64,000 nt of DNA, taken from positions 32,001 through 96,000 of the IMG/VR virus record IMGVR_UViG_3300008255_000003. One strand, 5' to 3'. Source of the DNA: a virus. The notes under the pieces are model-generated. The model worked only from the letters and a program-made list of their open reading frames with translations. It did not search any database and was not told where the DNA came from. The stretch's first letter is position 1. Each line of letters begins with the position of its first letter. Positions 1 through 62,369 of the stretch are shown here, one piece after another. Both the position numbers and the translations under genes were made by a program.

Positions 1-238
1 CAGGGCCTACGATCTAAAAGTCGGGATGTGTCTTGATGTGGGCGGCTCCGGCTATCCTTACTGGATAGCAGGCATAGAGAAGGGCCGTCAGAACGGCATT
101 GACGTCCTATTCTTAACATTTACTGATCACTCTGGCGTTACATTGCAAGCCCACTGGTTTGCAACGCGTCATGAGTGTTACGAGCTATAATAACGCAGCA
201 GACATGCAACGGTTGCATGTCTGCGCTTGGAGGTTGTG

Positions 239-1096
239 ATGCGTGAGTATATAGAGCGAGTAATTTTCACGACGGCAGTTGAGGCGTATGACTATCCTGG
301 CGTTGTGGTTGAGGAGCTTGAAGCGTTTGAGTGCGGCGGGCGCACTTGGCGCAAGGTCAAGATGGTCAATGAGCCCTATCGCATTGAGAATCAAATAATG
401 CGTTACGCTAGTGGTCTTTGCGGGGCTTGGGATGAAGATCCGCGAGTAGCAGAAGAGAGGCATCGCGTAGTAGAGGAGAAGTGGCGCGCGCTTGTCGCTG
501 AGCAGAAGGCTCAGATTGACGCCATAGATGTCGCTGATGACCTTGAACGCTATTTTAGGCGGAATGAACACTGTCTTGACTATAAGGCCAAGGCACATGC
601 TCGCGAGCGCATTGATGCTCTCGCAAAGCGAGATGCGAAGGCTGAGGCTGAGGCCAAAGCAAAAGAGATCGCGGAAGCAACGCCCAAGCTTCCCAACATC
701 ATATTCATCCCGATCTACCACAACATGCGGTTTTGTCGCTTTGAGATGTCTGTGGTTAAAGGCTTTGACTGGCAGAACAATGTCAAGGTGGATGGGGTGA
801 GTTTGTCTGCGGCTAGCGTCATCGCTGGCGAGTACGTCAGGGCGATCCCCTGGTGGGGCGATATGCCGCCGCAGCGTCTCTTTAGGGATCATGCTCATGA
901 CTTTCAATCATGGGAGCGTGTGACGTTTGAAGGCGAGGCGTACTACCGCGTAGGAAAGATGTTTACATACCCGCGCGAGTACATCGTTTATGACGCTGAC
1001 GGCAAAAAGGTCAGGCGATCAATGCGCCGACTAGATCTCTTTAGTCAGACAGCCCTTGAGTGGACCAAGATCTTTGACATCCCATCGCATCCTTAA
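239..1096 (+). CDS. Hypothetical protein
   Basis: Long ORF with GGAGG RBS at 229-233 directly after a palindrome hairpin. Confidence 0.65.
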   Translation: MREYIERVIFTTAVEAYDYPGVVVEELEAFECGGRTWRKVKMVNEPYRIENQIMRYASGLCGAWDEDPRVAEERHRVVEEKWRALVAEQKAQIDAIDVADDLERYFRRNEHCLDYKAKAHARERIDALAKRDAKAEAEAKAKEIAEATPKLPNIIFIPIYHNMRFCRFEMSVVKGFDWQNNVKVDGVSLSAASVIAGEYVRAIPWWGDMPPQRLFRDHAHDFQSWERVTFEGEAYYRVGKMFTYPREYIVYDADGKKVRRSMRRLDLFSQTALEWTKIFDIPSHP

Positions 1097-1142
1097 ACCC
1101 CTATAGCAAGGCCTGCAACCGTTGCAGGTCTTGGAGGTGTAT

Positions 1143-1541
1143 ATGACCAAGCCCAGGCACCTTAAGAAGCCGTGCGCCCAGTGCCCCTTCCGGGGGAATT
1201 GGCTGACGAAGGGATCAGCCATTGAGATCGTGACAGCCCTTCGCAATGACAAGCCGTTCTCGTGTCATAAGACGGTCAACTATGACCGCGAGCGCGACGG
1301 CATGACTGAGGCCTTCTGCGCAGGAGCCTTGGCTTCAATGCGAAAGTCTGGCGAGCTGTTTAATAACTTCGCCGTCCGCGTTCACGCGATGACCATGCGG
1401 GTCGATGGTTGGCCAGCTAACGTTGATGGTGAAGGCATCCCATCGCTCGATGAATGGATTGACCTCCATGATGACAATGGGCGGAGTCGATTCCCATCTG
1501 GTGAGGGGGTCGAGTTTGATGAGGAGTGTGATGATGAGTGA
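1143..1541 (+). CDS. Small Cys/His-rich, probably Zn-binding phage protein
   Basis: Motifs PCAQCPFR, FSCHKT, FCAGA; GGAGG RBS after the palindrome at 1114. Confidence 0.6.
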   Translation: MTKPRHLKKPCAQCPFRGNWLTKGSAIEIVTALRNDKPFSCHKTVNYDRERDGMTEAFCAGALASMRKSGELFNNFAVRVHAMTMRVDGWPANVDGEGIPSLDEWIDLHDDNGRSRFPSGEGVEFDEECDDE

Positions 1542-2349
1542 GTTTGAGATCTTCGCGCGCAAGTGGCAGCCTAATGAGGTGGTGTTGCCATGCCCGAGCG
1601 CACCAGCACTTAATGACATTCAGGCGGGGTGGCTCTGGCTGCTAGCGCTTGATATTGATCGAGTGCTTTGGGGTCGATGGGCATGGTGGCTTGAGCGTCT
1701 TGAGAAGCGCGACTTTGACACCATCAAGTCTTCTGACATCCCCAAGATCACATTCAACCTCTACCGAGGCCATGAGCCCCACCACAAGGCGCTCAAGATG
1801 CTCAACCTATGTGTTGATACCATTAAGCGCCGCGAAGGGCGCTACAGCGGCAATGGCGCGCTCATGGCGCTAATTGATTGGCTGTCTTGGTCTTTGGGTT
1901 TGCAGGATGAAGCTCCAGGCATAAAGGTTGAGACTCACCAAGAGCTTTATCAGACCTTCTGCCTTGATCTTATCATGGGCGCGCCTTGTGACTATTGGGG
2001 GATCTTACTCTCAGACCTCCAGCACGGCAAAGGCACCACATCGTTTTATCCGACGCCCTCCGAGGTTGTCACGTTATTGACTGACATCATATCTGAGCAG
2101 GATGGGCCTGCCATGAGGAGCGCTTACGATCCATGTCTGGGCACGGGCAGGGCTTTGCTTGAGGCGTCTAATCACTACCTGCTATTGAGCGGCCAAGATA
2201 TAGACAGCTCGGTGCTCAAGTGTGCAAAGCTCAACTTTGCGCTCTATGTCCCTTGGGCGATCGTTCCACCACCGACTGATGAAAAGGTTGTGACCGTTGA
2301 TTCATGTGCCGCAGATCTTGAGCTATTGGAGGGCCTGTTAGATGTCTGA
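1534..2349 (+). CDS. N6-adenine DNA methyltransferase-like protein (SAM-binding portion)
   Basis: FYPTP, YDPCLGTG and GQDID resemble HsdM-type motifs; no NPPY/DPPY seen. Confidence 0.6.
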   Translation: MSEFEIFARKWQPNEVVLPCPSAPALNDIQAGWLWLLALDIDRVLWGRWAWWLERLEKRDFDTIKSSDIPKITFNLYRGHEPHHKALKMLNLCVDTIKRREGRYSGNGALMALIDWLSWSLGLQDEAPGIKVETHQELYQTFCLDLIMGAPCDYWGILLSDLQHGKGTTSFYPTPSEVVTLLTDIISEQDGPAMRSAYDPCLGTGRALLEASNHYLLLSGQDIDSSVLKCAKLNFALYVPWAIVPPPTDEKVVTVDSCAADLELLEGLLDV

Positions 2350-2977: not shown

Positions 2978-3000
2978 GCTAACTTATTAGCAAGGATGTA

Positions 3001-3040
3001 AAAAAGAGGCCCCATGCAACCGTTGCATGGGGCTTTTCTT
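3001..3040. terminator. Bidirectional intrinsic terminator-like hairpin with palindrome core
   Basis: GCCCCATGCAAC-C-GTTGCATGGGGC with A-rich left and T-rich right flanks, between convergent ORFs. Confidence 0.75.
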
Positions 3041-3041
3041 A

Positions 3042-3534: not shown

Positions 3535-4013
3535 TTGCGATAGTTCTTTACGCCTTCGCTAGCCTCAAGGGCCTCGTGCGCCGCGATGGCTGTGGCGATG
3601 ATCTTTATGAGTTGCGCTTTGGGGTCTGGGCTCTCACCTAGTCGGCTAGAGTATTGAGTAAGGATCTCAGACCATTCACTTGAGGTGTGTGCCATGTCAT
3701 GCCTCAAGCCACCCCAGATCGTCTTCTGCTTAAGGCGTTCAGCCTCAACAGCCTCTAGCATGGCCTTTTGCTTGGAGTCTGCCTTGGGGTCCGAGAGTTC
3801 ACCGTGATGGTCTGCGGCGACCCTGTTGTGGCAATATTCAGTGTCACGACATCGCCATGACATGATGTGCTCCGTGGCATCTTCATTGTCGTACTTGATG
3901 ATGATCTCATGCCTGGCAGCAGTATCATCTTCAATGATGCGACTGCAAAGCTCGCAAAACTCAGAGTATTCTGGAGAGACATGGTGAAGGATCTCGCGTT
4001 TAGTGTAGCTCAT
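3531..4013 (-). CDS. Hypothetical protein with Cys/His motifs
   Basis: CELC...CRDTEYCH; overlaps the sigma factor stop. Confidence 0.6.
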
Positions 4014-5746
4014 TCAAAGTTACCCGTAAGGTTGGATGGGATAAACTGCTCAAGAGCCTTCAAGCGTGATGGGTGCTTGAGTTTCTTGAGGGCCTTTGCT
4101 TCGATCTGCCGGATACGCTCCCGAGTAACGCTGAAGTCGTTTCCGACTTCTTCGAGAGTGTGATCGGTAGTATCACCTATGCCATAGCGAAGGCGCAACA
4201 CCCGTTCTTCACGAGCAGGAAGTGTGGATAAGATCTGCCTTGTAGCTTCGCTCAAGGTCTTACCTTCTATCGCTTCATGCTGGCCCTCATTGAGTACGTC
4301 CTCAATGGTGTCCTCAAGCGTGAAGTTGCCATCTCCTATTGTCTGGTTGAGGCTGACGGGTTCATAGGCAAGCTGGAGCATCTGACGCACCTTATCAACA
4401 TGGATTCCCATCTCGTCAGCGATCTCTTGCGGCTTAGGTGTTTCGCCTGACTTCTGAGCCATCGCCTTTTCAATGCGTTTGAGCTTATGGATGGTGTCGA
4501 TCATGTGGACAGGGATACGGATTGTTCGAGCCTGGTCTGCGATGGCCCTTGAAATGGCCTGCCTGATCCACCATGTGGCGTAGGTTGAAAACTTATAGCC
4601 GCGCTGATGCTCAAACTTATCAACTGCGCGCATAAGTCCGATGTTGCCCTCTTGGATCAGGTCCAGCAGTGGTATACCTCGGTGGTCATGCTTCTTGGCT
4701 ATGGATACGACCAGGCGAAGGTTTGATTGCACCATGACAGACTTGGCCCTCATCGCCAGATCTTCGCCTACTGATATGGCGGAGAATGCGATCTCAAGCA
4801 GGCTCATGGGTAACCCAAGCTCTCGCTCTATCGTATTCATCCTCTTAGTTGCCTGGATAAGATCGCCAAGGACAATGTGATGATTATGCTCGTTAACCTT
4901 GGTGCCATCGCAAGCCATTAAGGCGGCTTTCTTCATGCCCTTATTGAACATGGAGTTGATGAATTTGACCCTCTCCAAACTCACCATGAAGATGCCTTCC
5001 ATAGAACGGAGTTCAGCTTCAGCGAGTTTGGCCTCATTGTATTTTGACTTGAGGCCATTCGATATAAGGTCAACGTACTTCTTGGTGAAGTAAAACGAGC
5101 TAATGCCGTTGGTGATAACTTCGACCTCATCTGAGTTTAAGACTGGCGCGCCTATCCTTGAGGTGCTGCTTGTCCTTACTCGTTCAACGTCTTTAAGAAA
5201 CTCATTAAAGCGTTCGATGTTATCAAGCTCGAAAGCCTCCACCGCCTCGGGATCATTGAAGTCGATCTTCTCACCTGGCGCTGCTTGTAGCAGGTCGGAC
5301 GACTTAATCTTTCGCTTACTTAGAAGCGCTCCAATGAGTTGAAGCTCTTTAAGCCCATACTGTGTGCATAGGGTGGTGTTAAGGATGATGCTTTCACCGC
5401 TTGAGATTTGCTCGGAAGCTTCGATCTCTTCTGCCCTTGTGAGGAGCGGCACCCTGCCGATCATCCTTAGATAAGTCCTCACACTGTCACTGCCGGACAA
5501 GCTTCCATCATCAAGCTGACTGCGGCGTTCTGATGACATGATCTTTCGAGGTGTAGCTGCGGCCTGATCACCGATCACTACACCCATGCTGCTTAGGATG
5601 GTTTTAAACAGTATAATGGCTTGAGCGTGTGGATAGTCTGTAATGATGTTGTCCACATCGTGATGACTGATGAAGCCATCACGATAGCCCTTGTAGAATG
5701 TATGCTTAAGCCTTCCAAGCTTGAACCTATCCGTTGCGCCGCCCAT
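4010..5746 (-). CDS. rpoD: RNA polymerase primary-type sigma70 factor (578 aa)
   Basis: Region 1.2 [17 protein letters not shown]; region 2 [11 protein letters not shown]...[16 protein letters not shown]...[31 protein letters not shown]; region 4 TLEEVG...[20 protein letters not shown]; large non-conserved region. Confidence 0.95.
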
Positions 5747-5771: not shown

Positions 5772-6152
5772 TCATCCTGTATTGACGTTCTTGATTACCT
5801 CAAGCGTCACTGTCAGTGATTCTGCACCATTTGCACTGCCTGCGTCGAAGTCAATTTCAAGCATCACTAATACGCGGCTAAAGACTTTGGGAATCCCATC
5901 ACCAGATCGAACCTCTACGGTATAAACAGGCCACACTGAGTTAAACCTCTTGGTGCTATCGGGATGATTGACGATAAAGAAGCTATAGGCTGCAAAGGCA
6001 TCCTCTGGGGTGTCGTGTGGTTCGGTGGTGTGTGCGGAATAGTCTGTTGATATGTACTTACACATTTCATGCCCCCTGGGAATGTGCGCTAAGTCAATTA
6101 TTAACCTGATGCCTGTTACTTCATAGTCCTTATGCGCGTGCAACGGTTGCAC
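5772..6152 (-). CDS. Hypothetical protein (start uncertain)
   Basis: ORF upstream of the sigma gene; listed start lies in a palindrome copy, so the true start is probably downstream. Confidence 0.4.
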   Translation of the reverse strand: MQPLHAHKDYEVTGIRLIIDLAHIPRGHEMCKYISTDYSAHTTEPHDTPEDAFAAYSFFIVNHPDSTKRFNSVWPVYTVEVRSGDGIPKVFSRVLVMLEIDFDAGSANGAESLTVTLEVIKNVNTG

Positions 6153-9158: not shown

Positions 9159-9177
9159 ACATGCAACCGTTGCACGT

Positions 9178-11507: not shown

Positions 11508-12391
11508 GTGAAAGGGCTACCACACAGTAGCCCTGATTCATTGACGTTAAACTACTCGGCCCAAACCTGCAACGGTTGCATCCCTACTTCACAGCCTCAC
11601 GACATCCTAGACACTTTCCGAGCACAGCTTACGGCGGCACTCACTCACTAACCTCTAAATCCCTTATATCATCCCTTATTAAATCCAACCAAATCAACTC
11701 CAGAATCAACTTTTACCTCACACCATAACTTTCCCTACTCCATAGAATGCCACCCATCCGACATTCACACTTCAAACATCCCCAAGACCACATCAAATGA
11801 TCATCACTTTCAACCCCTATAAAAACACCCACTCTTCATAGACCCCCTCAACCAACCCCCCTTCATGGTGCATAACCACCCCATACATCCTATGGTGCAA
11901 TACATCGTATAGAACATCATCCCTTACCCATACTGACACCGTAGTGAGTTACGTCTGCACCATAACGAGTGACGATTACACCATAAGGCCTCTATGGTGC
12001 ATGATGACGGGAAAAGACATTTCGCTCCGCACCCCCACCCCCCTTTGAAAAAACTCAGGGGGGAGCTGCTCTGTTTTTTTTCCCAAGCACCATTGGGGGA
12101 TTTTTCAAAAGGGGCAGGGTGTGTCCCTATGGTGGAGGCATAGAGTCCTATGGTGGAGGCATAGAGTCCTATGGTGGAGGCATAGAGTCCTATGGTGGAG
12201 GCATAGAGTCCTATGGTGGCGGGAGGGGGTCGCGCGAGGGGAGTGACCTGTGGTGGTGGGGGTATGAGTGTACGGGGAGTGTGCGGGGGTCAATGTCAGA
12301 CGTGCAACCGTTGCATGTTGGAATGATGGGGGTCGGTGTTAGAATGGGGTTCGTGGCGAGATGTAAACAACGCACCATAGAGAGGTATGGG
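11508..12391. other. Non-coding region with skew switch and repeated motifs; candidate replication origin
   Basis: Top strand C/A-rich to about 12050 and G-rich after about 12110; 13 CACCAT/ATGGTG copies; imperfect inverted repeat 12040-12114; a palindrome copy near each end (11568, 12303); lies between divergent genes. Confidence 0.55.
12125..12219 (+). repeat. 21-bp tandem repeat TCCTATGGTGGAGGCATAGAG, about 4.5 copies
   Basis: Units start at 12125, 12146, 12167, 12188, plus a partial unit at 12209; each full unit holds CTATG-N7-CATAG. Confidence 0.95.
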
Positions 12392-13843: not shown

Positions 13844-13885
13844 TCATCACGCACGCAACGGTTGCATGTCATAAGGAATCCGACT

Positions 13886-15671: not shown

Positions 15672-15765
15672 TAAGATGCAACGGTTGCATGTTTGATATA
15701 GGTTGTGTTCTTATCAATGCGGGTCTGATGTTGTGTCAGACCCGTAAACTTTGGAGGTTAGTGAT

Positions 15766-15933: not shown

Positions 15934-16053
15934 AACACGCAACCGTTGCATGTCTAAAATATGGCTTGCGCGGCTCATGCTTCTGGGTTTAGTCTTCTTG
16001 TGTTGCCGGGCGCGTTGTTAAACGTCCGGCTTGGACTTCAAGTGAGGTAGGTA

Positions 16054-17277: not shown

Positions 17278-17341
17278 AACCCATCACAACCCAAACAGGG
17301 ATGCAACGGTTGCATCCCTGTTCATTCTTCAAGGTGAAGAT

Positions 17342-20528: not shown

Positions 20529-20570
20529 AAAAACAGCCCTCATGCAACAGTTGCATTGGGGCTGTTTTTT
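20529..20570 (+). terminator. Intrinsic terminator-like hairpin with variant palindrome core
   Basis: ACAGCCCTCATGCAAC-A-GTTGCATTGGGGCTGT followed by a T run. Confidence 0.7.
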
Positions 20571-20613: not shown

Positions 20614-23367
20614 GTGCCCACCAAACCCCAGAAACACTATATGGAGTGTGACATGAGTTCTCTTGATAATAAGTGCGGTTGGCGTCAAGTCTCTCACCAT
20701 GAAGACCCCTACGCTGACATTACTTTTGAGACTTCTGACGTGACGATTAAGGGCGGTAAGGACAAGCCTGACTTCGTGCAAAAGGGTGTGTCGTTCCCAT
20801 CCTTCTACAGCGAGACGTCGCGTAAGGTCGTGGCCAATAAATACTTCTACGGCACCAGGGGTTCTAGGGAGCGCGAGCACTCGATGGCTCATATCGTCGA
20901 TCGTGTGTCTGCCAAGCTTGCAACCTGGGGTGAGGAGCAGGGCTACTTCCCTGACGGTGATAGGCAGCGCGAAGAGTTCTTTAATACGCTTCGTTTCACA
21001 CTTATCAATCAGTACGCCGCCTTTAACTCACCAGTGTGGTTTAACCTGGGCACTCCAGAGCCGCAGCAAGCAAGCGCGTGTTTCATCAACTCGGTCGAGG
21101 ACTCGATTCAGTCGATCATCAACCTTGGCGCTACTGAGATGATGGTGTTTAAGGGCGGATCAGGGGCCGGTGTGAACGTCTCAAGGCTGCGCGGCAAGCA
21201 AGAGCCCCTTAAGGGTGGGGGCGTCTCTAGCGGTCCACTGAGCTTCATGAGGGCCTGGGATGAGGCGGCAGGATCAATCAAGTCAGGCGGCAAAACAAGG
21301 CGTGCGGCTAAGATGGTGGTGATGGACGTTGATCACCCTGACATTATGGAGTTCATCGCCTGTAAGGGTATTGAAGAGAAAAAGGCCCAAGCCCTTATCG
21401 CTGCTGGTTTCGATGGGAGCTTTGATGCTGAGAATGGCGCGTATGCAACCGTTGCATTCCAGAATGCCAATCACTCGGTGTGCATGTCTGATGAGTTCAT
21501 GGACGCAGTGGTCAACGATGATCACTTCAGGCTCGAATGGCGTACAGATCCTAGCAAGGCTGAGGTGGTCAAGGCTCGCAACATCATGTCTGCCGCATGT
21601 CAATCATGCTGGGAGTCGGGCGACCCTGGCGTCCAGTTTGGTGACACCATCAATAAGTGGCATACCTGCCCCAACGATGGCCGTATCGTGGCATCTAACC
21701 CATGCTCCGAGTATTTCCACCTCAATGACACGTCGTGCAACCTGGCCTCACTTAATCTTATGAGGTTCGTGATATTTGAGAACGGTCGCGCAGTGGGCTT
21801 TGATTTTGCTGCGTTTTACAATGCTAGCTATCTCATGGCCCTCGCCTTGGACATCATCATCGACAAGGCCCATTATCCAACTGAGCAGTTGGCAATCGAG
21901 ACTAAGAAGTCTCGCACCATAGGTTTAGGCTTTGCAAACCTTGGTGCTGTAATCATGGCTCTCGGCCTGCCTTATGGTTCTAAAGAGGCGTGCAGGCTCG
22001 CAGCCACGATCACCCATGTGATGAATGCAGCGGCCTACATTAGAAGTGCTAATACCTGCTTAGACCTTGAGCTTGCGCCATTCGAGCGACTTGATCGCAA
22101 CCGTGAGGCTATGTCTAACGTTCTTGGGATGCACGCTGAGGCATTTTTAACGCTTAGGGATGAGACGGATGACAAGCGTTTTGGCTTGGACTCCAATGTT
22201 ATCGACATGAGCTTGAGGGCTTTGTCGAACCTGTCAAGAAATGTGCGTAAGGGTGCCAATCTGCGCAACGCTCAAGCAACTGTTCTTGCCCCGACTGGCA
22301 CCATCTCATTCATGATGGGGTGCGACACTACTGGCGTTGAGCCTGTCCTTGGCCTTGTGAGCTACAAGCAGTTGGTTGGTGGAGGCTTCCTTAAGCTGAC
22401 ACTCGACTGCACCAGATCTGCGCTGCTCAACCTCGGCTACTCGCCCAGCGAGACTGAAGAGGCCCTTTGTCACATCGAAGACCACGACAGCCTTGATGGC
22501 TTTAAGCTCAAGCGTTCAACTGATGCTGAGGTGTTCAAGACATCATTCTCAACATCCCCAGAATATACTCTCGACTGGAAGGCTCATGTTGACATGATGG
22601 CAGCCTGTCAGCCTGCGCTTAGTGGTGCAATATCAAAGACGGTTAACATCAATGAAGATGCTACGCCGAAGGATATTGAGGACATCACCTTCTATTCTTG
22701 GCGCGCTGGGCTCAAGTCGGTGGCGATCTACCGTAACAACTGCAAGCAGTCACAGCCTCTCACGCTCAAGTCTAGTGGTGATAAGAATGTCGAAGATCCG
22801 ATCGAGTCCTTAAGGGAGCATGGTGTCTTAGTGCATGGCGAGCGCAGGAGGCTTGAGAAGACGCGCAAGAGCAGGACGCATACCTTCTCGATCGGCGGTC
22901 AGAAGGGCTACATCATCATTGGTGAGTATGAGGACGGCTCGCCTGGTGAGATCTTTATCAACTTTGCCAAGATGGGGTCTACAGCGCGCGGCTTTGTTGA
23001 CTCGTTCGCCATAGGTCTAAGCCTTGGCCTTCAATATGGGGTGCCGCTTGAGGTGTTCCATAACAAGTATCGCCACATGAGCTTTTCACCATCAGGCTTC
23101 ACGGACAACCCAGAGATCCGCAAGGCCAGCTCCATCCCCGATTACGTCTTGCGCTGGGTTGCGCAAGAGTATTTCAATGATGGTGCAGAAGAGCGTGACG
23201 AGGCCCAAGATGATCAGGTGGTGTCTGACATTGCCAAGATCAGGTCCAAGTCAAAGCTCAAGACAAGCGCCACTGGGGATCTGTGTTCTGTCTGTGGGGG
23301 TCAGTTAGTCCAGGCTGGAACGTGTCACACTTGCACTGAATGCGGCTCTTCTACGGGCTGCGGCTAG
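20614..23367 (+). CDS. nrdJ: Class II (adenosylcobalamin-dependent) ribonucleotide reductase
   Basis: FNSPVWFN, SACFI, IKSGGKTRRAAKM, SNPCSEY, CNLASLNL, LAPTGTIS, SGAISKTVN; C-terminal TSCPD-like domain and CxxC...CxxC ribbon. Start may be at 20641 or 20653. Confidence 0.95.
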   Translation: MPTKPQKHYMECDMSSLDNKCGWRQVSHHEDPYADITFETSDVTIKGGKDKPDFVQKGVSFPSFYSETSRKVVANKYFYGTRGSREREHSMAHIVDRVSAKLATWGEEQGYFPDGDRQREEFFNTLRFTLINQYAAFNSPVWFNLGTPEPQQASACFINSVEDSIQSIINLGATEMMVFKGGSGAGVNVSRLRGKQEPLKGGGVSSGPLSFMRAWDEAAGSIKSGGKTRRAAKMVVMDVDHPDIMEFIACKGIEEKKAQALIAAGFDGSFDAENGAYATVAFQNANHSVCMSDEFMDAVVNDDHFRLEWRTDPSKAEVVKARNIMSAACQSCWESGDPGVQFGDTINKWHTCPNDGRIVASNPCSEYFHLNDTSCNLASLNLMRFVIFENGRAVGFDFAAFYNASYLMALALDIIIDKAHYPTEQLAIETKKSRTIGLGFANLGAVIMALGLPYGSKEACRLAATITHVMNAAAYIRSANTCLDLELAPFERLDRNREAMSNVLGMHAEAFLTLRDETDDKRFGLDSNVIDMSLRALSNLSRNVRKGANLRNAQATVLAPTGTISFMMGCDTTGVEPVLGLVSYKQLVGGGFLKLTLDCTRSALLNLGYSPSETEEALCHIEDHDSLDGFKLKRSTDAEVFKTSFSTSPEYTLDWKAHVDMMAACQPALSGAISKTVNINEDATPKDIEDITFYSWRAGLKSVAIYRNNCKQSQPLTLKSSGDKNVEDPIESLREHGVLVHGERRRLEKTRKSRTHTFSIGGQKGYIIIGEYEDGSPGEIFINFAKMGSTARGFVDSFAIGLSLGLQYGVPLEVFHNKYRHMSFSPSGFTDNPEIRKASSIPDYVLRWVAQEYFNDGAEERDEAQDDQVVSDIAKIRSKSKLKTSATGDLCSVCGGQLVQAGTCHTCTECGSSTGCG

Positions 23368-23791: not shown

Positions 23792-23960
23792 TGACCTAAA
23801 ACATGCAACGGTTGCATGTCTGACTTTGGAAGTTCTATGTGGCTTGATGTCATGATCGGCAATCTCTTGAACGAGCTTGCGTGTTGTTTGTCTTCGTGCA
23901 GACTGCTTGTGCTCGTGCTCTTGATCCTGGCCATTGAGCCAACGTCAAACAAGGTGGATA

Positions 23961-26474: not shown

Positions 26475-26550
26475 CGCCTCACGCGCCAATGGTCGAGTGT
26501 TTTGGTTGTGAGACATGCAACGGTTGCGTGTCTCTATTTTGGAGAACATT

Positions 26551-27408: not shown

Positions 27409-28046
27409 GCAAGAATCGAAGGCTTCCACGCATACGGTTTTCGGACACGCACCCCAAGAAACAGGCCGAATATCTCTTGGCTCATGACAGGTATTATGAC
27501 GCCATCAAGGCCTGTTATGGCATTAAGGGTGAAGCAGAGCGATCTTTGATGATGCGCACCATTGCTAAGAAGCGCGATGAGGTGGAAAGCTTCTTACTCA
27601 ACGGGCGCTCAATGCCAGCCTTCGGTGGAACGGAGAAGCAGAACGCATGGTGCGAGAACATATTTTTAGACACCTTGCTTTGGCTTAGGGCTTGGCGTCA
27701 CTGGGCCTTAAACGCAGACATCAGGCACGGGCGCGTTAGCTCTGACTTTAGGCGTCAAAACATGCTGGAGTTGGCTGACATTTTCGAGCTTGAGAACGCC
27801 TTGGCTTGGATTGAGGTGGTTGACGTCCTTATCCCCATGACGGTGCATGGCCCTTACACCTTCAAAGAGCATCCAGACCGTTCAGACGTTCCTGGCGAGA
27901 TCGACGTTAGCCTTTATGCCCACCATGAAGAGCTGGCCTTTGAGAGCATCTCTGGATTCTTGAAGGCTCGTGAGAGTGTCTTTCTGTATGGTCATCCATA
28001 CGGCTTTAAAAAATATTACTTAATAAGTATTGACATTAAAGCTTGA
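27405..28046 (+). CDS. Hypothetical protein
   Basis: 213 aa; contains GGTEKQNAW. Confidence 0.6.
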   Translation: MSKNRRLPRIRFSDTHPKKQAEYLLAHDRYYDAIKACYGIKGEAERSLMMRTIAKKRDEVESFLLNGRSMPAFGGTEKQNAWCENIFLDTLLWLRAWRHWALNADIRHGRVSSDFRRQNMLELADIFELENALAWIEVVDVLIPMTVHGPYTFKEHPDRSDVPGEIDVSLYAHHEELAFESISGFLKARESVFLYGHPYGFKKYYLISIDIKA

Positions 28047-28057
28047 GCGATCATAAT
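28030..28057 (+). promoter_or_regulatory. Sigma70-type promoter with a palindrome copy near the predicted start site
   Basis: TTGACA-N16-CATAAT, then a half-site and the full palindrome at 28066. Confidence 0.7.
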
Positions 28058-28100
28058 GCAACCCATGCAACGGTTGCATCCATAACTGATAAGGGGCTTT

Positions 28101-28966: not shown

Positions 28967-28992
28967 CATCACAAGCCTCCTATGATACAGTA

Positions 28993-29029
28993 AGCCAGAC
29001 ATGCAACGGTTGCGTGTCTGGCTTTTTTT
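28993..29029 (+). terminator. Intrinsic terminator-like hairpin with palindrome core
   Basis: AAGCCAGACATGCAAC-G-GTTGCGTGTCTGGCTT followed by a T run. Confidence 0.75.
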
Positions 29030-32434: not shown

Positions 32435-32479
32435 GCAAAAAACCCCAACATGCAACGGTTGCATGTAGGGCTTTTTTTT
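32435..32479. terminator. Bidirectional terminator-like hairpin with palindrome core
   Basis: A run, imperfect stem, T run, between convergent ORFs. Confidence 0.7.
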
Positions 32480-33456: not shown

Positions 33457-33499
33457 AGAGCCTATGACATGCAACCGTTGCATGTCATAGGCTCTTTTG
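33457..33499 (+). terminator. 19-bp perfect hairpin with palindrome core and T tail
   Basis: AGAGCCTATGACATGCAAC-C-GTTGCATGTCATAGGCTCT then TTT. Confidence 0.75.
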
Positions 33500-35329: not shown

Positions 35330-35399
35330 CTTGATGTGGCTAGTGGTTAAGATGAAAAGGACATGCAACCGCTGCATGTCCTTTTCTTTGGAGGTAAGC

Positions 35400-38035: not shown

Positions 38036-38080
38036 GCAAAAAACCCCAACATGCAACGGTTGCATGTTGGGGTTTTTTGC
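38036..38080. terminator. 22-bp perfect inverted repeat, bidirectional terminator-like, with palindrome core
   Basis: GCAAAAAACCCCAACATGCAAC-G-GTTGCATGTTGGGGTTTTTTGC between convergent ORFs. Confidence 0.8.
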
Positions 38081-40657: not shown

Positions 40658-41121
40658 TTGTAGTGCAAACGAACGAAAGCCCTAAGAGCTGTAAACCAGT
40701 TCCCAGGGCTAACGTTCGTCCCACCATCAACACTGAGTAAGTAATTTTTACTCAAGTACATGTAAGGTAGAGAGAGAGAGAAGAAACATATGCATACCAT
40801 ACTGATGTATATGAAACTTACTAAGATGACTTTGGACACACACGCTAAGAGCTAAGCTCTTTCCCTATGGGATGTCATAGCCATAGAGATGCTTGAGTGG
40901 TGGTAAGGTTGACGATACATCAACCCTAGGTTCTTATGAGTCTCCTGTTGTTCTAGTTTAAGGCCTTGTTAGAGTTTGACGGGCTCTAGTTCGGGCTCTA
41001 CTTGCCGCATTGGCTTCCGATCTGGCGTTAGGATAGACCTATATATTGAGAGCGGGCAAGCGCGCAGTTAAGATTTATAGACGTGCAACGGTTGCATGTT
41101 TCATTCTTTGATGGGGTTGGG

Positions 41122-42123: not shown

Positions 42124-42219
42124 AACATGCAACGGTTGCATGTCTGTTCTTAGAAGACTTGAGCCTTAGACACGCAAAGCTGATGTTCGGCTTTGCGTTT
42201 GGAAACAAACCCTTAATCA

Positions 42220-43310: not shown

Positions 43311-44159
43311 ATGATTGGAAGTGCATGGCCAGGCGATCGATTCTGGCGTAAGAGTGTCGAGACTGGCCTGCAAGATGTAGCCAGGCCTACACCATTCTAT
43401 CCATACTATGAGCGAACGCTTTATGGCCCTGGTCGCGCTGCGGATCTTCTGTCTTGGATAAGCTGGCTTTATGGCTTGCGTACTCACTTGGATGACATCT
43501 TCAATATTGGCTATATGTGGGTTGAGTCGTGGCCTGATGATGATCGTCTTCATGAGATGGATCTCTTGGCTATACTGAGCCTTGAGAAGTCAACCTCGGG
43601 CATCAGACTTAAACACTCTTCAATCATCCATAGATACGCCTTGGCGCTTGCTTCTGAGCTTAGGTCATCATTCACCAAGATCCCTGCCCTGTCTGTGTCC
43701 GGCTGGCGAGGTCTTTATGATGACCCCGAGTCTATCGACTACTATTACAACTATGCTGAGGTTCTTGGCGCGCTTGCGGCGGCCCCATTCTTAGGTGAGG
43801 AGAATCTTCACGGAGCCTGTCCTCAAGGTGGTTTTGATACGATCGCGGAGCACTTTTTCAACACGCTCAATCTCAAGGTGAAGACTTATCCGGCAGACTT
43901 TAAAGATCCGCTCGGCCCTACAAAAAGAAACAGGCAGATGCTCGCTGATAGTCAGTGTTTTGTGGCGCTTTGGAATGGTGACATGAAGTCGTCTGGCACG
44001 CTTAACTTCATCAAGGGCGCGCACGAAGATCCTGACTGGATTGTCTGGTCAGTACCATCCCCTCACGATCAGATCTTTGGTCGCGTCTACGGCTTGAGGC
44101 TTGGTTGGTTTTATGCTCAGTGTCTACACCATGACAAAGCTGCGTTAGAGGCTCCATAA
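43311..44159 (+). CDS. Protein with C-terminal SLOG (DUF2493/YspA-like) domain
   Basis: GACPQGGFDTIAE...YPADF...GPTKRNRQML...VALWNG...SSGTLNFIKGA. Confidence 0.7.
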   Translation: MIGSAWPGDRFWRKSVETGLQDVARPTPFYPYYERTLYGPGRAADLLSWISWLYGLRTHLDDIFNIGYMWVESWPDDDRLHEMDLLAILSLEKSTSGIRLKHSSIIHRYALALASELRSSFTKIPALSVSGWRGLYDDPESIDYYYNYAEVLGALAAAPFLGEENLHGACPQGGFDTIAEHFFNTLNLKVKTYPADFKDPLGPTKRNRQMLADSQCFVALWNGDMKSSGTLNFIKGAHEDPDWIVWSVPSPHDQIFGRVYGLRLGWFYAQCLHHDKAALEAP

Positions 44160-45123: not shown

Positions 45124-45520
45124 CTGCGGCCATGTTGTGCTTGTGCCTCGCAGGTTAATCCCTGGCGAGCCCGCCACAGTCAATGTTAATACAAGCCAGT
45201 GTCTCAGATGCAGGCACCAGTGTGTTACTGACGGCGGCCACAAGCCAAGGTCTAGGAATGGCAGCCCATCCTCACCCCATGCAACCGTTGCATGTCAAGG
45301 TGTCGTCTTTGAGACGAGCGAGACATACGATCGCATTGTCAGGTTGGTCGGCATCAAGCTAGATCAGCGCGGCATTAAATATGATGACTTGAGGCTTGTA
45401 GATCAGCATGTCTGGATGGCATCATTATCAGGTGAAGATGTTGCCATGATTCTGCTCAAGGGTGCACCTGCCGAGCTGCTGAAGGGCCAAAAGATTCCTG
45501 TTCTGTTCCTTGGGATATAA
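45089..45520 (+). CDS. Hypothetical protein with possible Zn finger
   Basis: CGH...CLRC; contains the palindrome at 45280. Confidence 0.5.
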   Translation: MAFMIKSKVRISCGHVVLVPRRLIPGEPATVNVNTSQCLRCRHQCVTDGGHKPRSRNGSPSSPHATVACQGVVFETSETYDRIVRLVGIKLDQRGIKYDDLRLVDQHVWMASLSGEDVAMILLKGAPAELLKGQKIPVLFLGI

Positions 45521-47384: not shown

Positions 47385-47428
47385 CTAAACAAAGCAGACA
47401 TGCAACCGTTGCATGTCCTCACTTAAGC

Positions 47429-52014: not shown

Positions 52015-52914
52015 ATGGTGTCTGTAGGAGCTGAAGCTGCTGTGTTGCTGCTTTGGATTTTGGAAGTTTCAGAACACACCCTTCATGGTGATAAGATCCT
52101 GTCTGAGCTTAGGCCGGATCTTGATGTTTATCTTGGCCTCGCCGGAAACTCACAGAGCCTTGTTGGTGTGCTTTGTGCTGAGGGCTGGCTGGTTGAGACT
52201 GAGTGGCCTAACTTTGTTGAGGTCGGGCAGCTCATGGATGACGGCATGGTGAGGATTCACTTTGACTGCGTGTTCACAACATCAGTCATGGAAGCCCAGG
52301 CCAAGGCCAAGCGTGATAAGATCCTCGCTGATCGCACGCAACGGTTGCATGTTAAAAGCTCAGATAGTGAGGCGAAGACTGATCAGGCCAGTGTTGAAGA
52401 GCCTAGGTCTGCTGCTGTTTCTGACCTTATTGATGCGATCACTGCCAAGTCTGACAAGGTGGCCAGTGAGAGCATTGAACGGCGCCGCAAGCGCGCTGCT
52501 GAGAAGCCACCAAAGCCTAAAGCTGAGCCTAGAAAGACATCGGCAACTGTCTTTGCAGAATGGAAGGTGCTTTATTCTGCCCAATATGGAGAGCAGCCGG
52601 AGTCAATGTTTAATGGTGGTAAGCTTTCTGCCGAGGGTGGCCGTATGAGTACGGTTGTCAAGAAAGCTGGCAGTGTTGATGCGGCTCTTGCGTTCATCCG
52701 AGAGGTCATGGGAAGGCATGGCGATTACGCCAAGCTCTATCGACATGCTGGCGTGTTTGATGGTGCGTTTCTCTTGAGGATAGTTGGCGAAGTGACATTT
52801 GCTCAGTCCCGCGACCTTGATCCCATCAAACACATACAGTCAATCAAGTCGTCTCCCAACGCATCAGGCGCGAAGGATAAGGCTAAGGGTGCTGAGTTTA
52901 AGGATGACTTCTAG
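52015..52914 (+). CDS. Putative replication initiator-like protein
   Basis: Two-domain look with a charged linker, directly upstream of the DnaC-like and DnaB-like genes; inferred from position only. Confidence 0.4.
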   Translation: MVSVGAEAAVLLLWILEVSEHTLHGDKILSELRPDLDVYLGLAGNSQSLVGVLCAEGWLVETEWPNFVEVGQLMDDGMVRIHFDCVFTTSVMEAQAKAKRDKILADRTQRLHVKSSDSEAKTDQASVEEPRSAAVSDLIDAITAKSDKVASESIERRRKRAAEKPPKPKAEPRKTSATVFAEWKVLYSAQYGEQPESMFNGGKLSAEGGRMSTVVKKAGSVDAALAFIREVMGRHGDYAKLYRHAGVFDGAFLLRIVGEVTFAQSRDLDPIKHIQSIKSSPNASGAKDKAKGAEFKDDF

Positions 52915-55965: not shown

Positions 55966-56042
55966 CGCTTGCAACGGTTGCATGTCTGATCTTAATATCC
56001 TTGCGTGGCCTTGTCGGGTCACGCTTTTCTATTGGAGTTAAT

Positions 56043-56426: not shown

Positions 56427-57613
56427 TGGATACGGGTAAGGTCATTGATGTGTTGAGGCTCCTTGGATGCACCGACATTGACAGCCGCCCATCATCATCA
56501 GGATGGCTCAAAGCGAGCTGTCCTTTTGCTCGGTGGAATCATTCTGGAGGCACTGACTCAAGCCCTTCATTTGCCGTCAATGTCACTGGTGAGCGCGTAG
56601 GCTACTGCTGCTTCTCTTGCCATGAGAAGGGCGGCTCTCTAAGGGGTCTTACGAACAAGATTGCCAAGCGAACAGCCGTTCCTTGGGATGTCCAAATGCT
56701 TGTGCAGCAGATTGAGGGTAGCTACAGTCCAAAGCCGTTACAGTCAGACCCGGCCAAGGTTGGCTATGACATCAAGATGCCGATCTTTAGCTCTGCTGAT
56801 GAGTCTGATCTTTTCCAGCCGTCAATCTTTGGTGAGTCTGAACCTGCAACGGTTGCATGTCTTGAGGAGTCAGACCTTGCCAGTTATAGCAACACCATAC
56901 CTGATTACCTTGTAAGGCGTGGATTTGAGGTTGCTGAGCTTAAGCGCTGGGGCATCATGACTGATAGTTACAATCCAAGGTTTGAACGCGCGGTGTTTCC
57001 TGTAAGGGATGCTCAAGGCAGGCTTCTGGCCTACTCAAAGCGAGCGACATGGGATAAACCGATCTGTCAGAATTGCGGCTATTCATCACCGCCTGATGAG
57101 AAGTTGATGTTGATGACTCCCACGGACGCTAAGCGTGTGTCATGTAGGTGGGGTCAAAGACACTGCCCGTCATGCAACCGATGGGTTTGGCCTAAATATC
57201 AACATTCCAAGGGTTACAAGCGTAACAACTATCTCTACGGTGAGCATCTTATTGACCCTGCGCTTCGAGCGGGTGTATTGGTTGAGGGTAATCTTGATCC
57301 GATAAAGCTCAGTCAGTATGGCGTGAAGAACGCTGTGGCCAGTTTGGGGTCAATGCTTGGCACGGGTTGGGGCGACAAGTCTTCACCTGGCGAGCAACTT
57401 TGGAAGTTAAATCAGCACTTCGATCTAGTCTATGCCGTCGCTGATGGTGATGTGGCTGGTAAGGACTGGCTGTCAACGTTGACCAAATTTTTCGCCGGAA
57501 AACCACAGCTTTTGACTGTGATCCCGATAGAATTAGGTCGTGGTAAAGACCCTGGCGATTTGGAAAAACATGATGTAGATTATTTGTTCAGTGGAACGAA
57601 AGTTCTAAAATAA
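56426..57613 (+). CDS. dnaG: DNA primase (Zn finger plus TOPRIM) with an extra Zn ribbon
   Basis: SCPFARWNH...CFSC; VFPVRD; LVEGNLD; DGDVAG; KDPGD. Confidence 0.85.
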   Translation: MDTGKVIDVLRLLGCTDIDSRPSSSGWLKASCPFARWNHSGGTDSSPSFAVNVTGERVGYCCFSCHEKGGSLRGLTNKIAKRTAVPWDVQMLVQQIEGSYSPKPLQSDPAKVGYDIKMPIFSSADESDLFQPSIFGESEPATVACLEESDLASYSNTIPDYLVRRGFEVAELKRWGIMTDSYNPRFERAVFPVRDAQGRLLAYSKRATWDKPICQNCGYSSPPDEKLMLMTPTDAKRVSCRWGQRHCPSCNRWVWPKYQHSKGYKRNNYLYGEHLIDPALRAGVLVEGNLDPIKLSQYGVKNAVASLGSMLGTGWGDKSSPGEQLWKLNQHFDLVYAVADGDVAGKDWLSTLTKFFAGKPQLLTVIPIELGRGKDPGDLEKHDVDYLFSGTKVLK

Positions 57614-58639: not shown

Positions 58640-58663
58640 GGTTAAGCTCGCTGGCTAACGTAT

Positions 58664-58690
58664 GGGCCACCTTGTGAGGGTGGCCCTTTA
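58664..58690 (+). terminator. Intrinsic terminator
   Basis: GGGCCACC-TTGTGAG-GGTGGCCC then TTTT. Confidence 0.7.
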
Positions 58691-58717
58691 TCTTGGACTT
58701 TTAGACTAGGTATAACG

Positions 58718-59344: not shown

Positions 59345-59364
59345 CGCAACGCAAGTCCCCTTAG

Positions 59365-60684: not shown

Positions 60685-60708
60685 ACGTGCAACGGTTGCA
60701 TGTCATAC

Positions 60709-60738
60709 GCTGGAGGCTTACACCTCCAGCTTTTCTTT
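60709..60738 (+). terminator. Intrinsic terminator downstream of a palindrome, running into the next RBS
   Basis: GCTGGAGG-CTTACA-CCTCCAGC then TTTTCTTT GGAG. Confidence 0.7.
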
Positions 60739-60750
60739 GGAGCCTATGTC

Positions 60751-62325
60751 ATGACAGAAGACTTTAGACCATTTCTTAAAGAGGCTTGGGCACAACGTGT
60801 TGTTATAGATGGCATGGCGTGGATACCTCGCCACATCTTAAGCGACATAGCACTCGCGGCCATAAAAACCCAACTCACCGTGTCGATCAAGGTTAGAGAA
60901 GGTAGGAAGACGCGAACAAATAAGGTCGAGATGTATATCATCGAAGACTTCTGGGTTGGTGTCCCGAGGGCTTACTTTGAGCGCACATCGAGAAGCAAGC
61001 TCCCGGTTGAACACCTCGTGAGCGCTGCCGAGAGTGAGCGCATCAAGACTTGCGGCATTGAGCCTAGAGATGACATGCAGATCGACGCTGTAAATGTAAT
61101 TACGGAGAGGCTTAAATCCAGGGAGGTGACGCAAGTGATCATTTGCGCTGCCACTGGTGTTGGTAAGACTATCCTGAGCCTTGTGATTGCGAGCAAACTA
61201 GGTCTTAAGACGTTGATCGTGGCACCTCTAACCAACCTGCTTGACCAGTGGGAAACAAGGATAAGTAGCACGGTAAACGATGAAGACCCTAGCGCCCCTT
61301 GCGTTCTGCCAGACGCTAAGGTTGGTCGTTTTAGTGGTGACAGGCGCGAGTACGGCGCCAACTATGATGTTGTGCTTGCGACAACCCAGACGCTTTGTCG
61401 CTGTGATCCTTCTGACCCTATATTTCAGTGGCCAGGCCTCTTGATTGTTGATGAGGTTCACTTCATGGGTGCTGCCCAGTGGTGTACAATTAATCACCGA
61501 TTCAACGCGACAAAGCGCCTTGGTCTGACAGCTACACCAAGGCGCGCTGACGGGGGAGAGCGGCTGTTCTTTGAGCATCTTGGCGCGGTAGGTTGGCGCG
61601 GCGCTAAGCCTATGATGGGTTTGGATATACGAAGGATAGATACGGGCTGCGACTATAATGACAGCCTTATGATCAATAAGGTTGAGGGTATGATCTCAAG
61701 AGATCTTAACCGCTCAATCATTATAGCTGATGAGATATGCAAAGCCTTGGTTGCTGGCCGCAAGCCGCTTGTCCTATCAAAGCAGATCAATCACCTTGCC
61801 GTCATTTGCAGCATTGTATCTCACCGCCTCGGTGATGCTTACACCTATGGAACATGCTGCGGCAGGTGGCCTGTGAATCCGGTAGACGCCTCAAAGTATC
61901 ACCTTGATAAGAAGGCATGGCGTAAGCTTTATAAGAAGCGTGGTAAGTGGGCATTGCCTGAAGGTGCCAACCCTGATGACTATGACATCAAGTTGAATTC
62001 GGATGGTAATATTGAATCAATTGAGCCATCATATATAAAGATAACTAAGGAAGTGTTTGAAAGCTCCAAGTCTGACAGCATAATTTTTGCCACATATTCA
62101 ATGGTAGCTGTGGGCTTCGATGTCACGTCATTAGATACATTGTTTGTCACCATGCCCATGTCTGATATGGAGCAATCGGTGGGCCGCATCCTCAGAAAGA
62201 ACAAAGAAAAGATGAAACCGCTCGTCGTTCACTTTGTAGATAACTACAAGATGTCTTACATCTTCTGGGGTAAAGCTTCCAAAACTTATGACTTGCTAAG
62301 TGAGCTAGGATCGGGCGAAGATTAA
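60751..62325 (+). CDS. Superfamily 2 DNA helicase (UvsW/XPB-like)
   Basis: ATGVGKT, IVDEVH, GLTATPRRADG, VGFDV, QSVGRILR. Confidence 0.9.
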   Translation: MTEDFRPFLKEAWAQRVVIDGMAWIPRHILSDIALAAIKTQLTVSIKVREGRKTRTNKVEMYIIEDFWVGVPRAYFERTSRSKLPVEHLVSAAESERIKTCGIEPRDDMQIDAVNVITERLKSREVTQVIICAATGVGKTILSLVIASKLGLKTLIVAPLTNLLDQWETRISSTVNDEDPSAPCVLPDAKVGRFSGDRREYGANYDVVLATTQTLCRCDPSDPIFQWPGLLIVDEVHFMGAAQWCTINHRFNATKRLGLTATPRRADGGERLFFEHLGAVGWRGAKPMMGLDIRRIDTGCDYNDSLMINKVEGMISRDLNRSIIIADEICKALVAGRKPLVLSKQINHLAVICSIVSHRLGDAYTYGTCCGRWPVNPVDASKYHLDKKAWRKLYKKRGKWALPEGANPDDYDIKLNSDGNIESIEPSYIKITKEVFESSKSDSIIFATYSMVAVGFDVTSLDTLFVTMPMSDMEQSVGRILRKNKEKMKPLVVHFVDNYKMSYIFWGKASKTYDLLSELGSGED

Positions 62326-62369
62326 CTAACGACATGCAACGGTTGCATGTCTAACTTTGGAGATAGTGA

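Follow-up and report, generated by a model that had tools for sequence, protein, structure and literature searches.

A palindrome family dispersed along the genomes of large uncultured myoviruses, with candidate sites for a symmetric DNA-binding protein

The 64,000-nt stretch analysed here (the window) carries 23 exact and seven one-mismatch copies of the palindrome TGCAACSGTTGCA, the first starting at position 205 and the last at 62335, against a chance level of 0.14 copies on average and one copy at most (100 dinucleotide shuffles). These are the same 30 sites that were counted in an earlier note on this DNA, and its description of the motif as genome-wide holds for the whole myovirus genome (G000, 129,896 bp), where 40 exact and 10 one-mismatch copies constitute a family of 50. 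Copies with two mismatches occur at chance level, so the edge of the family is sharp. The conserved unit is longer than the 13-mer (RACA-TGCAAC-S-GTTGCA-TGTY), the full consensus being a palindrome of 19-21 bp, and the element has no strand.

Most copies are located between genes: 40 of the 50 in G000 (80%) are intergenic, although intergenic DNA makes up 12% of the genome, and 6 of the 10 convergent junctions are occupied, which is a preference. By new gene calls, 19-20 of the 30 window copies lie 3-42 nt past a stop codon, close to the previous estimate of about 21, and the reported association with ribosome-binding sites (RBS) is seen as a GGAG or GAGG within 30 nt downstream of 10 of the 30. 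Window copies named below are exact unless a mismatch is given. Co-directional junctions hold the copies at 205..217 (14 nt past a stop, stem extended by 7 bp, followed by an RBS), 1114..1126 (stem +7, RBS 4 nt downstream), and 17302..17314 (stem +8, with covarying non-consensus flanks GGGA/TCCC). Others are placed 10 nt (13854..13866, mismatch C1), 5 nt (15677..15689), 4 nt (42128..42140), 16 nt (47401..47413, upstream of a 971-aa helicase gene), and 9 nt (62335..62347, upstream of a UvsX-like recombinase gene) past a stop. At convergent junctions, the copy at 3015..3027 forms the tip of a 15-bp hairpin (3005-3037) that is a bidirectional terminator, those at 32451..32463 (A-run/T-run) and 38052..38064 (stem +17) belong to bidirectional terminators, and the bare copy at 9162..9174 has the stops of two convergent genes 3 nt away. 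A divergent junction contains the copy at 6139..6151. The copies at 15938..15950 (C1) and 41084..41096 (short stem) are intergenic, and that at 23804..23816 probably is as well, with a stop-like TAA upstream and an RBS downstream.

Two copies, at 11568..11580 (bare) and 12303..12315 (stem +7), mark the left and right edges of a gene-free gap of about 900 bp with divergent genes on either side, in line with the earlier claim that two copies bracket a candidate origin. The proximity of one copy to a promoter is likewise borne out: the bare copy at 28066..28078 begins 9 nt past the -10 element of a promoter-like TTGACA-16-CATAAT (28030-28057). Among 13 strong sigma-70-like promoters, a single one adjoins a copy; the sites are therefore no promoter operators of the classical kind.

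A minority of copies are found within genes. The bare copy at 21444..21456 lies in the class II ribonucleotide reductase (RNR) gene, where it codes for a conserved Y-A-T-V-A segment and is not an insertion; bare copies at 45280..45292 and at 56845..56857, the latter in the DnaG-like primase gene, are read as A-T-V-A, and a further intragenic copy (C1) is located at 52337..52349. Intragenic copies occupy only the two low-cost reading frames, and the 8-10 exact intragenic 13-mers of the genome show no stem extension (z -1).

The copies are spaced more evenly along G000 than expected (CV 0.60 vs 0.97 for random placement, P ~1e-4), and the same P is obtained when the null is limited to gene junctions. 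Even spacing is also seen in two relatives, G003 (CV 0.49, P ~1e-4) and G002 (CV 0.45, P 0.003); it was not found for the sites of a third, G005 (CV 0.93).

About a third of the copies in G000 take part in longer hairpins. Stems are extended by at least 7 bp in 17 of the 50 copies in a site-specific and covarying manner, and the flanks outside the conserved core show site-specific complementarity (z ~5, 0 of 2000 permutations). A terminator scan accepts seven hairpins that contain the motif, and the best predicted terminators of the genome are built on the motif. Examples include the copies at 20543..20555 (central A, terminator-like with stem +14 and a T-run after it, located upstream of the RNR gene), 26516..26528 (G13, tip of an 11-bp terminator-like hairpin at 26510-26534), 29002..29014 (G13, tip of a 15-bp hairpin followed by T7, terminator 28992-29024), and 33470..33482 (stem +16, then Ts, upstream of a holin/spanin pair); that at 35364..35376 (C9) has a stem extended by 13 bp and is followed by an RBS. 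Taken together, the flank complementarity and the motif-built terminators indicate that a role as RNA or cruciform is real in G000 and could be primary. Rho-independent termination by a GC-rich stem and U-tract was considered for the sites as a class and applies to a minority of copies only.

The palindrome might accordingly be read as RNA, i.e., as a conserved hairpin tip in polycistronic transcripts whose stem, and with it the sequence, is recognized by an RNA-binding protein or endoribonuclease in punctuation, processing, 3'-end protection, or control of termination. The position of most copies between stop codon and RBS agrees with such a role, as do the covarying stems, the clear terminators (some of them bidirectional at convergent junctions), and three copies just 3' of promoter-like sites, a position in which the mRNA could be stabilized by a 5' stem-loop. 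However, the bare core folds with only -2 to -4 kcal/mol, and the bare 13-mers inside genes with -2.1 kcal/mol. The central base in G000 is G in 29 copies and C in 20, in either orientation and almost never A or T (G 17, C 9 at co-directional plus sites, a difference that is not significant), and an A or U as loop base is likewise all but absent; internal G.U pairs are no more frequent than A.C (3 vs 4 at co-directional sites, 5 vs 6 overall). The genome has many GC-rich terminators lacking the motif, four of which directly adjoin a bare copy, e.g., the terminator at 56003-56024 next to the copy at 55970..55982 (4 nt past a stop) and that at 60709-60730 next to the copy at 60688..60700 (3 nt past a stop, upstream of a 541-aa helicase gene). 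In G002 and G003, the corresponding element has no stem longer than 4-5 bp, its folding is no stronger than that of random 45-mers, and its flanks lack site-specific complementarity (z ~0). Even spacing and intragenic copies would be unexpected for RNA punctuation, and Rfam 15 gives no match in the window at the gathering score. We therefore regard recognition of the palindrome as RNA as unlikely, and we read the G:C-only centre, the lack of a G.U bias, and the weak folding in relatives and intragenic copies as signs of a symmetric protein that would recognize double-stranded DNA.

Three distant relatives (35-39% capsid identity) possess site families of their own in which the half-site GCAA/TTGC is kept. 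The family of G002 and G003 is GCAAT-YR-ATTGC, with CG or, less often, TG/CA at the centre, and that of G005 is CGCAAGCGCTTGCG (CGCAAG-CG-CTTGCG). The scan of related phages that had been proposed thus recovers versions in all three, partly at orthologous junctions: after the RuvC-like gene, after the sheath gene, and before the 541-aa helicase gene, where a palindrome of its own is present in G003. Genes for a primase, a helicase loader, and RuvC-like, Cas4-like, and UvsX-like proteins are conserved throughout the clade, and its head module contains a conserved, extremely basic 114-aa protein. Another genome, G001, encodes all of these core enzymes and has no such palindrome family. Judged from these comparisons, the site family, (Y)GCAA-N3/4-TTGC(R), is old and common to a clade of uncultured myoviruses of ~130-200 kb, and it evolves in concert between related phages. 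Concerted change at junctions that are kept implies a trans-acting reader. From G000 to its relatives, the spacing of the half-sites shifts by 1 bp. This counts against a rigid dimer, as such a protein would not tolerate the change.

A selfish palindromic repeat of the REP or MITE type, spread by transposition or gene conversion and functionless for the phage, would also give near-identical, lineage-specific copies mostly in intergenic spacers. This origin is largely refuted and we consider it highly improbable: the Y1 (RAYT) transposase domain (PF01797) was not found, the RNR copy is part of conserved codons, the spacing is even, and sites have stayed at orthologous junctions through a concerted change of their sequence, at a capsid identity of 35-39%. 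Moreover, among 185,579 species genomes the motif occurs only as singletons and never as a dispersed family, and the scanned IMG/VR and metagenome contigs hold no dispersed family of the G000 motif either; the palindrome is thus not a host repeat, a concern raised earlier as similar density in host chromosomes. REP/BIME elements, RNase III sites of T7, and intercistronic hairpins of T4 are short palindromes past stop codons within operons, some of which terminate transcription or stabilize mRNA. They are defined by structure or by the RAYT transposase, and REP elements reside in host chromosomes, whereas in the phage family it is the sequence that is conserved, with stemless relatives, no RAYT, and no host copies.

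Regular spacing would also be needed by structural or enzymatic DNA sites, such as a cruciform or hairpin for replication priming, the initiation of recombination, the action of a site-specific nuclease or topoisomerase, or condensation for packaging. Even spacing in three genomes, sites forced into coding sequence where a spacer is lacking, the preference for convergent junctions, the core enzymes retained across the clade, and the basic head-module protein could all be accommodated in this way. Arms of 6 bp cannot extrude cruciforms, however, G001 has the enzymes and yet no family, and the roughly four-fold range of density (2.6, 5.8, and 10 kb per site) fits a priming or packaging geometry poorly; a function of this type appears rather unlikely.

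The closest counterparts in density and placement are the stoperators of cluster A mycobacteriophages (L5, Bxb1), more than 20 asymmetric 13-mers that are distributed genome-wide in promoters and short intergenic spaces, are oriented with transcription, and bind a protein that halts both initiation and elongation (PMC9283540). The 50 copies of G000, 40 of them intergenic, are very similar in these respects. In contrast to stoperators, which are read by a monomeric repressor, the G000 site is a perfect palindrome without orientation, evenly spaced and found also inside genes, and the L5 and Bxb1 phages are temperate, while neither an integrase nor an L5-type repressor was found in G000. The operators of KorB in IncP plasmids, the dispersed centromeres of N15, the C1 operators of P1, and the conserved inverted repeats of phiC31 are dispersed palindromic sites of 13-17 bp in ten to twenty copies, through which one protein couples genome-wide silencing or partition. 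G000 shares with them a single short palindrome family scattered over the replicon and differs in its higher copy number, its even spacing, and the absence of a ParB/KorB-like protein.

The search for a reader within the phage genomes was largely negative. ParB_N (PF02195) and tyrosine integrase (PF00589) are absent from G000, G002, and G003, and none of the five phage genomes has a LacI-type HTH (PF00356) at E<=0.1; genes pointing to lysogeny or plasmid maintenance were likewise not seen in the phage. G000 encodes one small Xre-type HTH with no detectable orthologue in the relatives, and the RHH protein at 44159, formerly named as a candidate binder, has no Pfam support. The earlier proposal of a dimeric phage protein is supported in one part: a symmetric, sequence-specific reader of DNA acting genome-wide is favoured by the concerted change, the G:C-only centre, the bare 13-mers in conserved codons, the stemless relatives, and the even spacing. 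Its other part, that the phage encodes this protein, gains no support, as none of the ParB, LacI, RAYT, or integrase families is present.

The reader could instead be supplied by the host. LacI-family operators are even-length palindromes of conserved inverted repeats with a central CG pair (PMC4052901), CytR recognizes TGCAA-N2-3-TTGCA with relaxed half-site spacing (PMC3454398), and the PurR box is ACGCAAACGTTTGCGT (PMC4576408). The phage sites share the half-site and the palindromic build. Those of G002/G003 (..GCAAT-CG-ATTGC..) and G005 are even palindromes with a central CG, and the G005 site matches the PurR core at 12 of 14 positions. The G000 site corresponds to TGCAA-CSG-TTGCA; its arms, ATGCAAC/GTTGCAT, match SELEX-derived CytR octamers at 7 of 8 positions, and for CytR the distance between half-sites may vary. 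Action from intragenic sites is also known for PurR and LacI. This likeness in operator architecture speaks as well for the broader reading of the palindromes as sites of a DNA-binding protein. On the other hand, the G000 palindrome is odd, with CG off-centre, and odd palindromes are rare (4%) in the LacI/GalR family; CRP-like sites, which flank CytR operators, lie within 70 bp of 3 copies vs 3.3 expected and hence are not enriched. We know of no precedent in this family for fifty high-quality operator copies on one replicon. It is quite doubtful that the sites are high-affinity operators of a host CytR/PurR-like repressor of nucleotide metabolism, with each lineage tracking the operator of its own host. 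Bound there, the repressor might serve as a roadblock coupling phage transcription to nucleoside or purine status, or it might be titrated as the genome replicates.

The sequences show the family itself, how it is distributed and conserved, and what constrains its sequence; from these we infer a protein on duplex DNA as the reader, together with what it might do. In our estimate there is about an even chance that the palindromes are dispersed double-stranded sites for a putative two-fold symmetric, sequence-specific protein that punctuates transcription or organizes the chromosome. On this reading, the sites are kept at roughly even intervals, mostly in the very short gaps that separate a stop codon from the following RBS, and are written into coding sequence where no spacer is available. 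Most likely, the bound protein would act like a stoperator or roadblock, punctuating transcription between genes or blocking it there; alternatively, it might be an organizer of the chromosome, bound at regular intervals. As the palindrome is part of the transcripts, some copies, about a third in G000, could have been lengthened secondarily into RNA hairpins, several of which would act as intrinsic, often bidirectional, terminators.

To our knowledge, genome-wide site families for one protein have been described from just a few temperate phages and plasmids. The present family would extend such systems to large, apparently virulent myoviruses of a deep, uncultured clade, and it has three unusual properties: perfect palindromes, even spacing that reaches into conserved codons, and concerted change at constant gene boundaries. 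If the reader were a host LacI-type repressor, the sites would represent a new means by which a phage senses or rewires the nucleotide metabolism of its host, and titration would de-repress the nucleotide supply of the host without any phage protein. The family would constitute a clean natural example of a reader co-evolving with its sites, and the 21-mer may serve as a ready-made probe for fishing out the regulator or organizer.

Searching the window with TGCAACSGTTGCA at up to one mismatch recovers all 30 sites claimed by the earlier note (23 exact and seven with one mismatch) and no others, while dinucleotide shuffles of the window yield a mean of 0.14 copies. The palindrome, TGCAAC(C/G)GTTGCA, extends genome-wide, with 40 exact copies and 50 at no more than one mismatch in the complete genome of the phage (G000), and related phages bear versions of their own. 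The edge of the family is sharp: copies with two mismatches are no commoner than chance predicts (three, 2.6 expected), and a word scan of the genome found no second word over-represented to a comparable degree. Alignment of the 50 copies defines the conserved unit as RACA-TGCAAC-S-GTTGCA-TGTY, a palindrome of 19-21 bp that exceeds the 13 bp originally described; its central base is most often G (29 copies), followed by C (20), and A occurs once.

The window covers bases 32001-96000 of its IMG/VR source record (129,896 bp), which carries a terminal repeat of 123 bp, indicating a closed assembly. As judged from simple ORF calls, G000 is a myovirus, encoding sheath, baseplate wedge, gp23-type capsid protein, portal, and prohead protease. 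Its replication and metabolism genes include a class II ribonucleotide reductase, a DnaB-like helicase, a DnaC-like loader, and a DnaG-like primase, accompanied by two more helicases and UvsX-like, RuvC-like, and Cas4-like proteins; tRNA genes are absent. Lysis is represented by endolysin, holin, and spanin; a conserved pair of 151 and 99 aa, considered as a binder of the palindrome, corresponds to holin plus spanin and was rejected. The large RpoD-like sigma factor (primary type, 578 aa, full-length; window 4010-5746, minus strand) is missing from the related phages G002 and G003, and its nearest cellular relatives share only 40-45% identity, so that no host can be inferred from them. Between portal and prohead protease lies a 114-aa protein (pI 12, Lys+Arg 32%; genome 105452-105796, L020:9452-9793), conserved in G002 and G003 and possibly a DNA-binding internal head protein. 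Nearly all of the ~90 small proteins lack a Pfam assignment, and Pfam and PHROGs searches over ~120 ORFs gave next to no matches. Pfam matches were obtained for an N6/N4 DNA methyltransferase (PF01555; genome 25064-26041, L019:5064-6038), which has a weak homologue in G003, and for a dCTP-deaminase-like and a SWIM zinc-finger protein of G000. Its lineage is highly isolated: none of 50,697 phage records matched 16 kb of the sequence at DNA level by megablast, and the best capsid match among cultured phages is 28% identical.

The motif is neither host-derived nor mobile. Its 17-bp core occurs in 13 IMG/VR contigs and, among one genome for each of 185,579 prokaryote species, gives 48 matches in 596 Gb, in both cases as singletons only; the similar density in host chromosomes that the earlier note had held out as a counter-argument was thus not seen in these species genomes. 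JGI metagenome contigs contain 86 loci with one 17-mer apiece and in none a dispersed family. That the copies represent a selfish repeat is very improbable, since no RAYT-type transposase (Y1_Tnp) is encoded in G000 and the copy within the reductase gene is not an insertion. This copy is translated as Y-A-T-V-A and aligns gap-free with Y-T-T-V-S in a class II enzyme of solved structure, and therefore arose by substitutions in conserved codons. Every intragenic copy is read either as A-T-V-A (e.g., window 21444-21456, 45280-45292, and 56845-56857) or as M-Q-R/P-L, never in the cysteine-rich frame, which shows that the site was accommodated within genes by way of the least costly reading frames.

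In a few unrelated metagenome contigs the 13-mer is locally clustered. One of them (Ga0056123_1002058, L199:4200-4400) contains at least 16 head-to-tail 13-bp units, TG(A/C)AAC-N-GTT(T/G)CA, forming the same odd palindrome as in G000 in a layout like that of iterons or a plasmid centromere. In two others (L175:5014-5060 and L221:3932-3978), two palindrome copies lie 32 bp apart, each framed by ATCA-...-TGAT, an arrangement that resembles an operator pair. The genes flanking these clusters, pairs, and array match no Pfam family. Judging by the pairs and the array, the 13-bp odd palindrome is read by a putative protein family.

Relatives of the phage were found by a capsid alignment search; neither the DnaB-like helicase nor the capsid protein, scanned singly against IMG/VR, gave a match, and the capsid alignment gave none against the species genomes. 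The resulting clade consists of uncultured genomes of ~126-200 kb with capsid identity of 35-39%; a closer relative, P0002 (65% identity), lies on a 21.9-kb contig, and G004, at 99.99% identity to G003, is uninformative on site turnover. None of the genomes at 35-39% identity contains the G000 motif. Families of their own are present in G003 (GCAAT-YR-ATTGC, 23 copies at no more than one mismatch), G002 (the same palindrome, 13 copies), and G005 (CGCAAGCGCTTGCG, 12-13 copies), for each of which shuffles predict about 0.2-2; G001 has no palindrome family of this type. The half-site GCAA/TTGC is common to G000, G002, G003, and G005, with a spacer of 3 nt in G000 as opposed to 4 nt in the relatives. 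Some copies sit at shared junctions, in the version proper to each genome: after the RuvC-like gene (G000 98484, G002 96337, G003 80829), before the 541-aa helicase gene (G000 92688, G003 74213), and after the sheath gene (G000 118927, G003 100056); two more junctions are common to G002 and G003. That the members of an old family have altered in step and yet stayed in place argues for a trans-acting reader that co-evolves with the sites.

Other repeats were noticed in the same genomes. G005 contains a second palindrome family, GAAAACTC-N3-GAGTTTTC (~10 copies in L132-L141; e.g., 60011, 68062, and 72440), three copies of which directly adjoin CGCAAGCGCTTGCG sites, as well as 24-34 repeats of the 20-mer AAGCCAACGAGCAAGCTGTT. 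The whole records of G002 and G001 hold 13 copies of CGATTATGCTGTAAG and six copies of CACTACAATTGTTGAC, respectively, the latter with a -35-like TTGAC at its 3' end; both are candidate lineage-specific promoters.

Within G000, 40 of the 50 copies are intergenic, the intergenic share of the genome being ~12%, and they frequently lie 2-5 nt past a stop codon, just ahead of the next ribosome-binding site. Where the gap at a junction measures 20 nt or more, a copy is present at 26 of 79 co-directional, six of 10 convergent, and five of 11 divergent junctions, so that placement follows neither terminators alone nor promoters alone. The promoter noted earlier near the copy at 28066 is sigma-70-like in sequence (window 28030-28057); of the 13 strong sigma-70-like promoters it alone adjoins a copy, and the copies show no general link with such promoters. 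Between divergent operons, ~40 bp from a motif copy, is a perfect palindrome with 12-bp arms, TTTTCTGTCAAT-aaccc-ATTGACAGAAAA (L019:3665-3695, genome 23665-23695), which puts TTGACA on both strands and looks like back-to-back -35 boxes. The copies are spaced more evenly than expected by chance in G000 (observed CV 0.60, expected 0.97, P about 1e-4, unchanged when the null is limited to real gene junctions), G003 (0.49 and 0.94, P about 1e-4), and G002 (0.45 and 0.90, P = 0.003); the deviation in G005 is not significant (0.93 and 0.94).

The flanks outside the conserved core of G000 show site-specific left/right complementarity (z about 5, reached in 0 of 2000 permutations), and in 17 copies the stem is lengthened by 7-17 bp. 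Several of these extended copies form textbook terminators, some of them bidirectional and located at convergent junctions (window 3015, 29002, 32451, and 38052). About two dozen G+C-rich terminator hairpins contain no motif, and at four places (genome 27750, 87970, 92688, and 110040) one directly adjoins a bare copy, so that the motif is an element separate from the terminators. An Rfam scan of the window found no match. It is unlikely that the primary element is an RNA hairpin recognised by a protein, since five results point to duplex DNA. Firstly, site-specific complementarity is absent from the flanks in G002 and G003 (z about 0), and the 45 nt around their sites form no more stable structures than random 45-mers do (-10.7 vs -10.0 and -10.6 vs -9.1 kcal/mol); for the bare core the value is only -2 to -4 kcal/mol. 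Secondly, the centre tolerates G or C either way round and not A/T in G000, and is CG, less often TG/CA, in the relatives, which is consistent with symmetric reading of a base pair or of a flexible pyrimidine-purine step rather than with a loop nucleotide. Thirdly, real RNA stems favour G.U, and, in an unbiased count, the tolerated non-Watson-Crick stem positions on the sense strand of co-directional sites comprise three G.U vs four A.C (five vs six overall; small numbers). Fourthly, exact bare 13-mers are kept inside genes with no stem extension whatever (z = -1). The even spacing is the fifth.

A symmetric DNA reader, part of the earlier proposal of a dimeric phage protein, is favoured by the relatives, the centre, and the spacing; for its being phage-encoded, phylogenetic profiling over five genomes and the family searches singled out no candidate. 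The sole Xre-type HTH protein of G000 (genome 21703-22020, minus strand) is encoded at the end of a leftward operon whose leader contains a motif copy, and an 84-aa Xre-type gene of G003 lies 53 nt from a palindrome copy; orthology between the two proteins is not detectable. ParB/KorB-like proteins (ParB_N) and tyrosine integrases (Phage_integrase) are absent. An enzymatic or structural DNA site serving replication, recombination, or packaging is an improbable explanation. The best-supported reading, with about an even chance, is that the copies are dispersed duplex-DNA sites, at even intervals genome-wide, for a symmetric, sequence-specific putative protein. By analogy with the stoperators of mycobacteriophages L5 and Bxb1 (PMC9283540) and with LacI-family roadblocks inside genes, the most likely target of the bound protein would be transcription between genes, the alternative being organisation of the whole chromosome. 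About one third of the G000 copies would have been secondarily lengthened into RNA hairpins and terminators.

At the sequence level, the architecture of the palindrome is that of LacI/GalR-family operators, palindromes with a central CG as their hallmark (PMC4052901). Most of these are even (1251 of 1303), whereas the G000 palindrome is odd. The CytR operator, TGCAA-N2-3-TTGCA, with optimal inverted octamers AATG(Y)CAAC-GC-GTTGCATT, has unusually relaxed spacing (PMC3454398), and ATGCAAC-S-GTTGCAT of G000 fits its form; the G005 site agrees with the PurR box, ACGCAAACGTTTGCGT (PMC4576408), at 12 of 14 core positions. A LacI-type HTH is encoded in none of the five phage genomes, and the neighbourhood of the copies shows no enrichment of CRP sites. 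A further reading, in which a CytR/PurR-like repressor of the host uses the sites as its operators, is doubtful; if it holds, the sites would let the phage sense or titrate the host's control of nucleotide metabolism.
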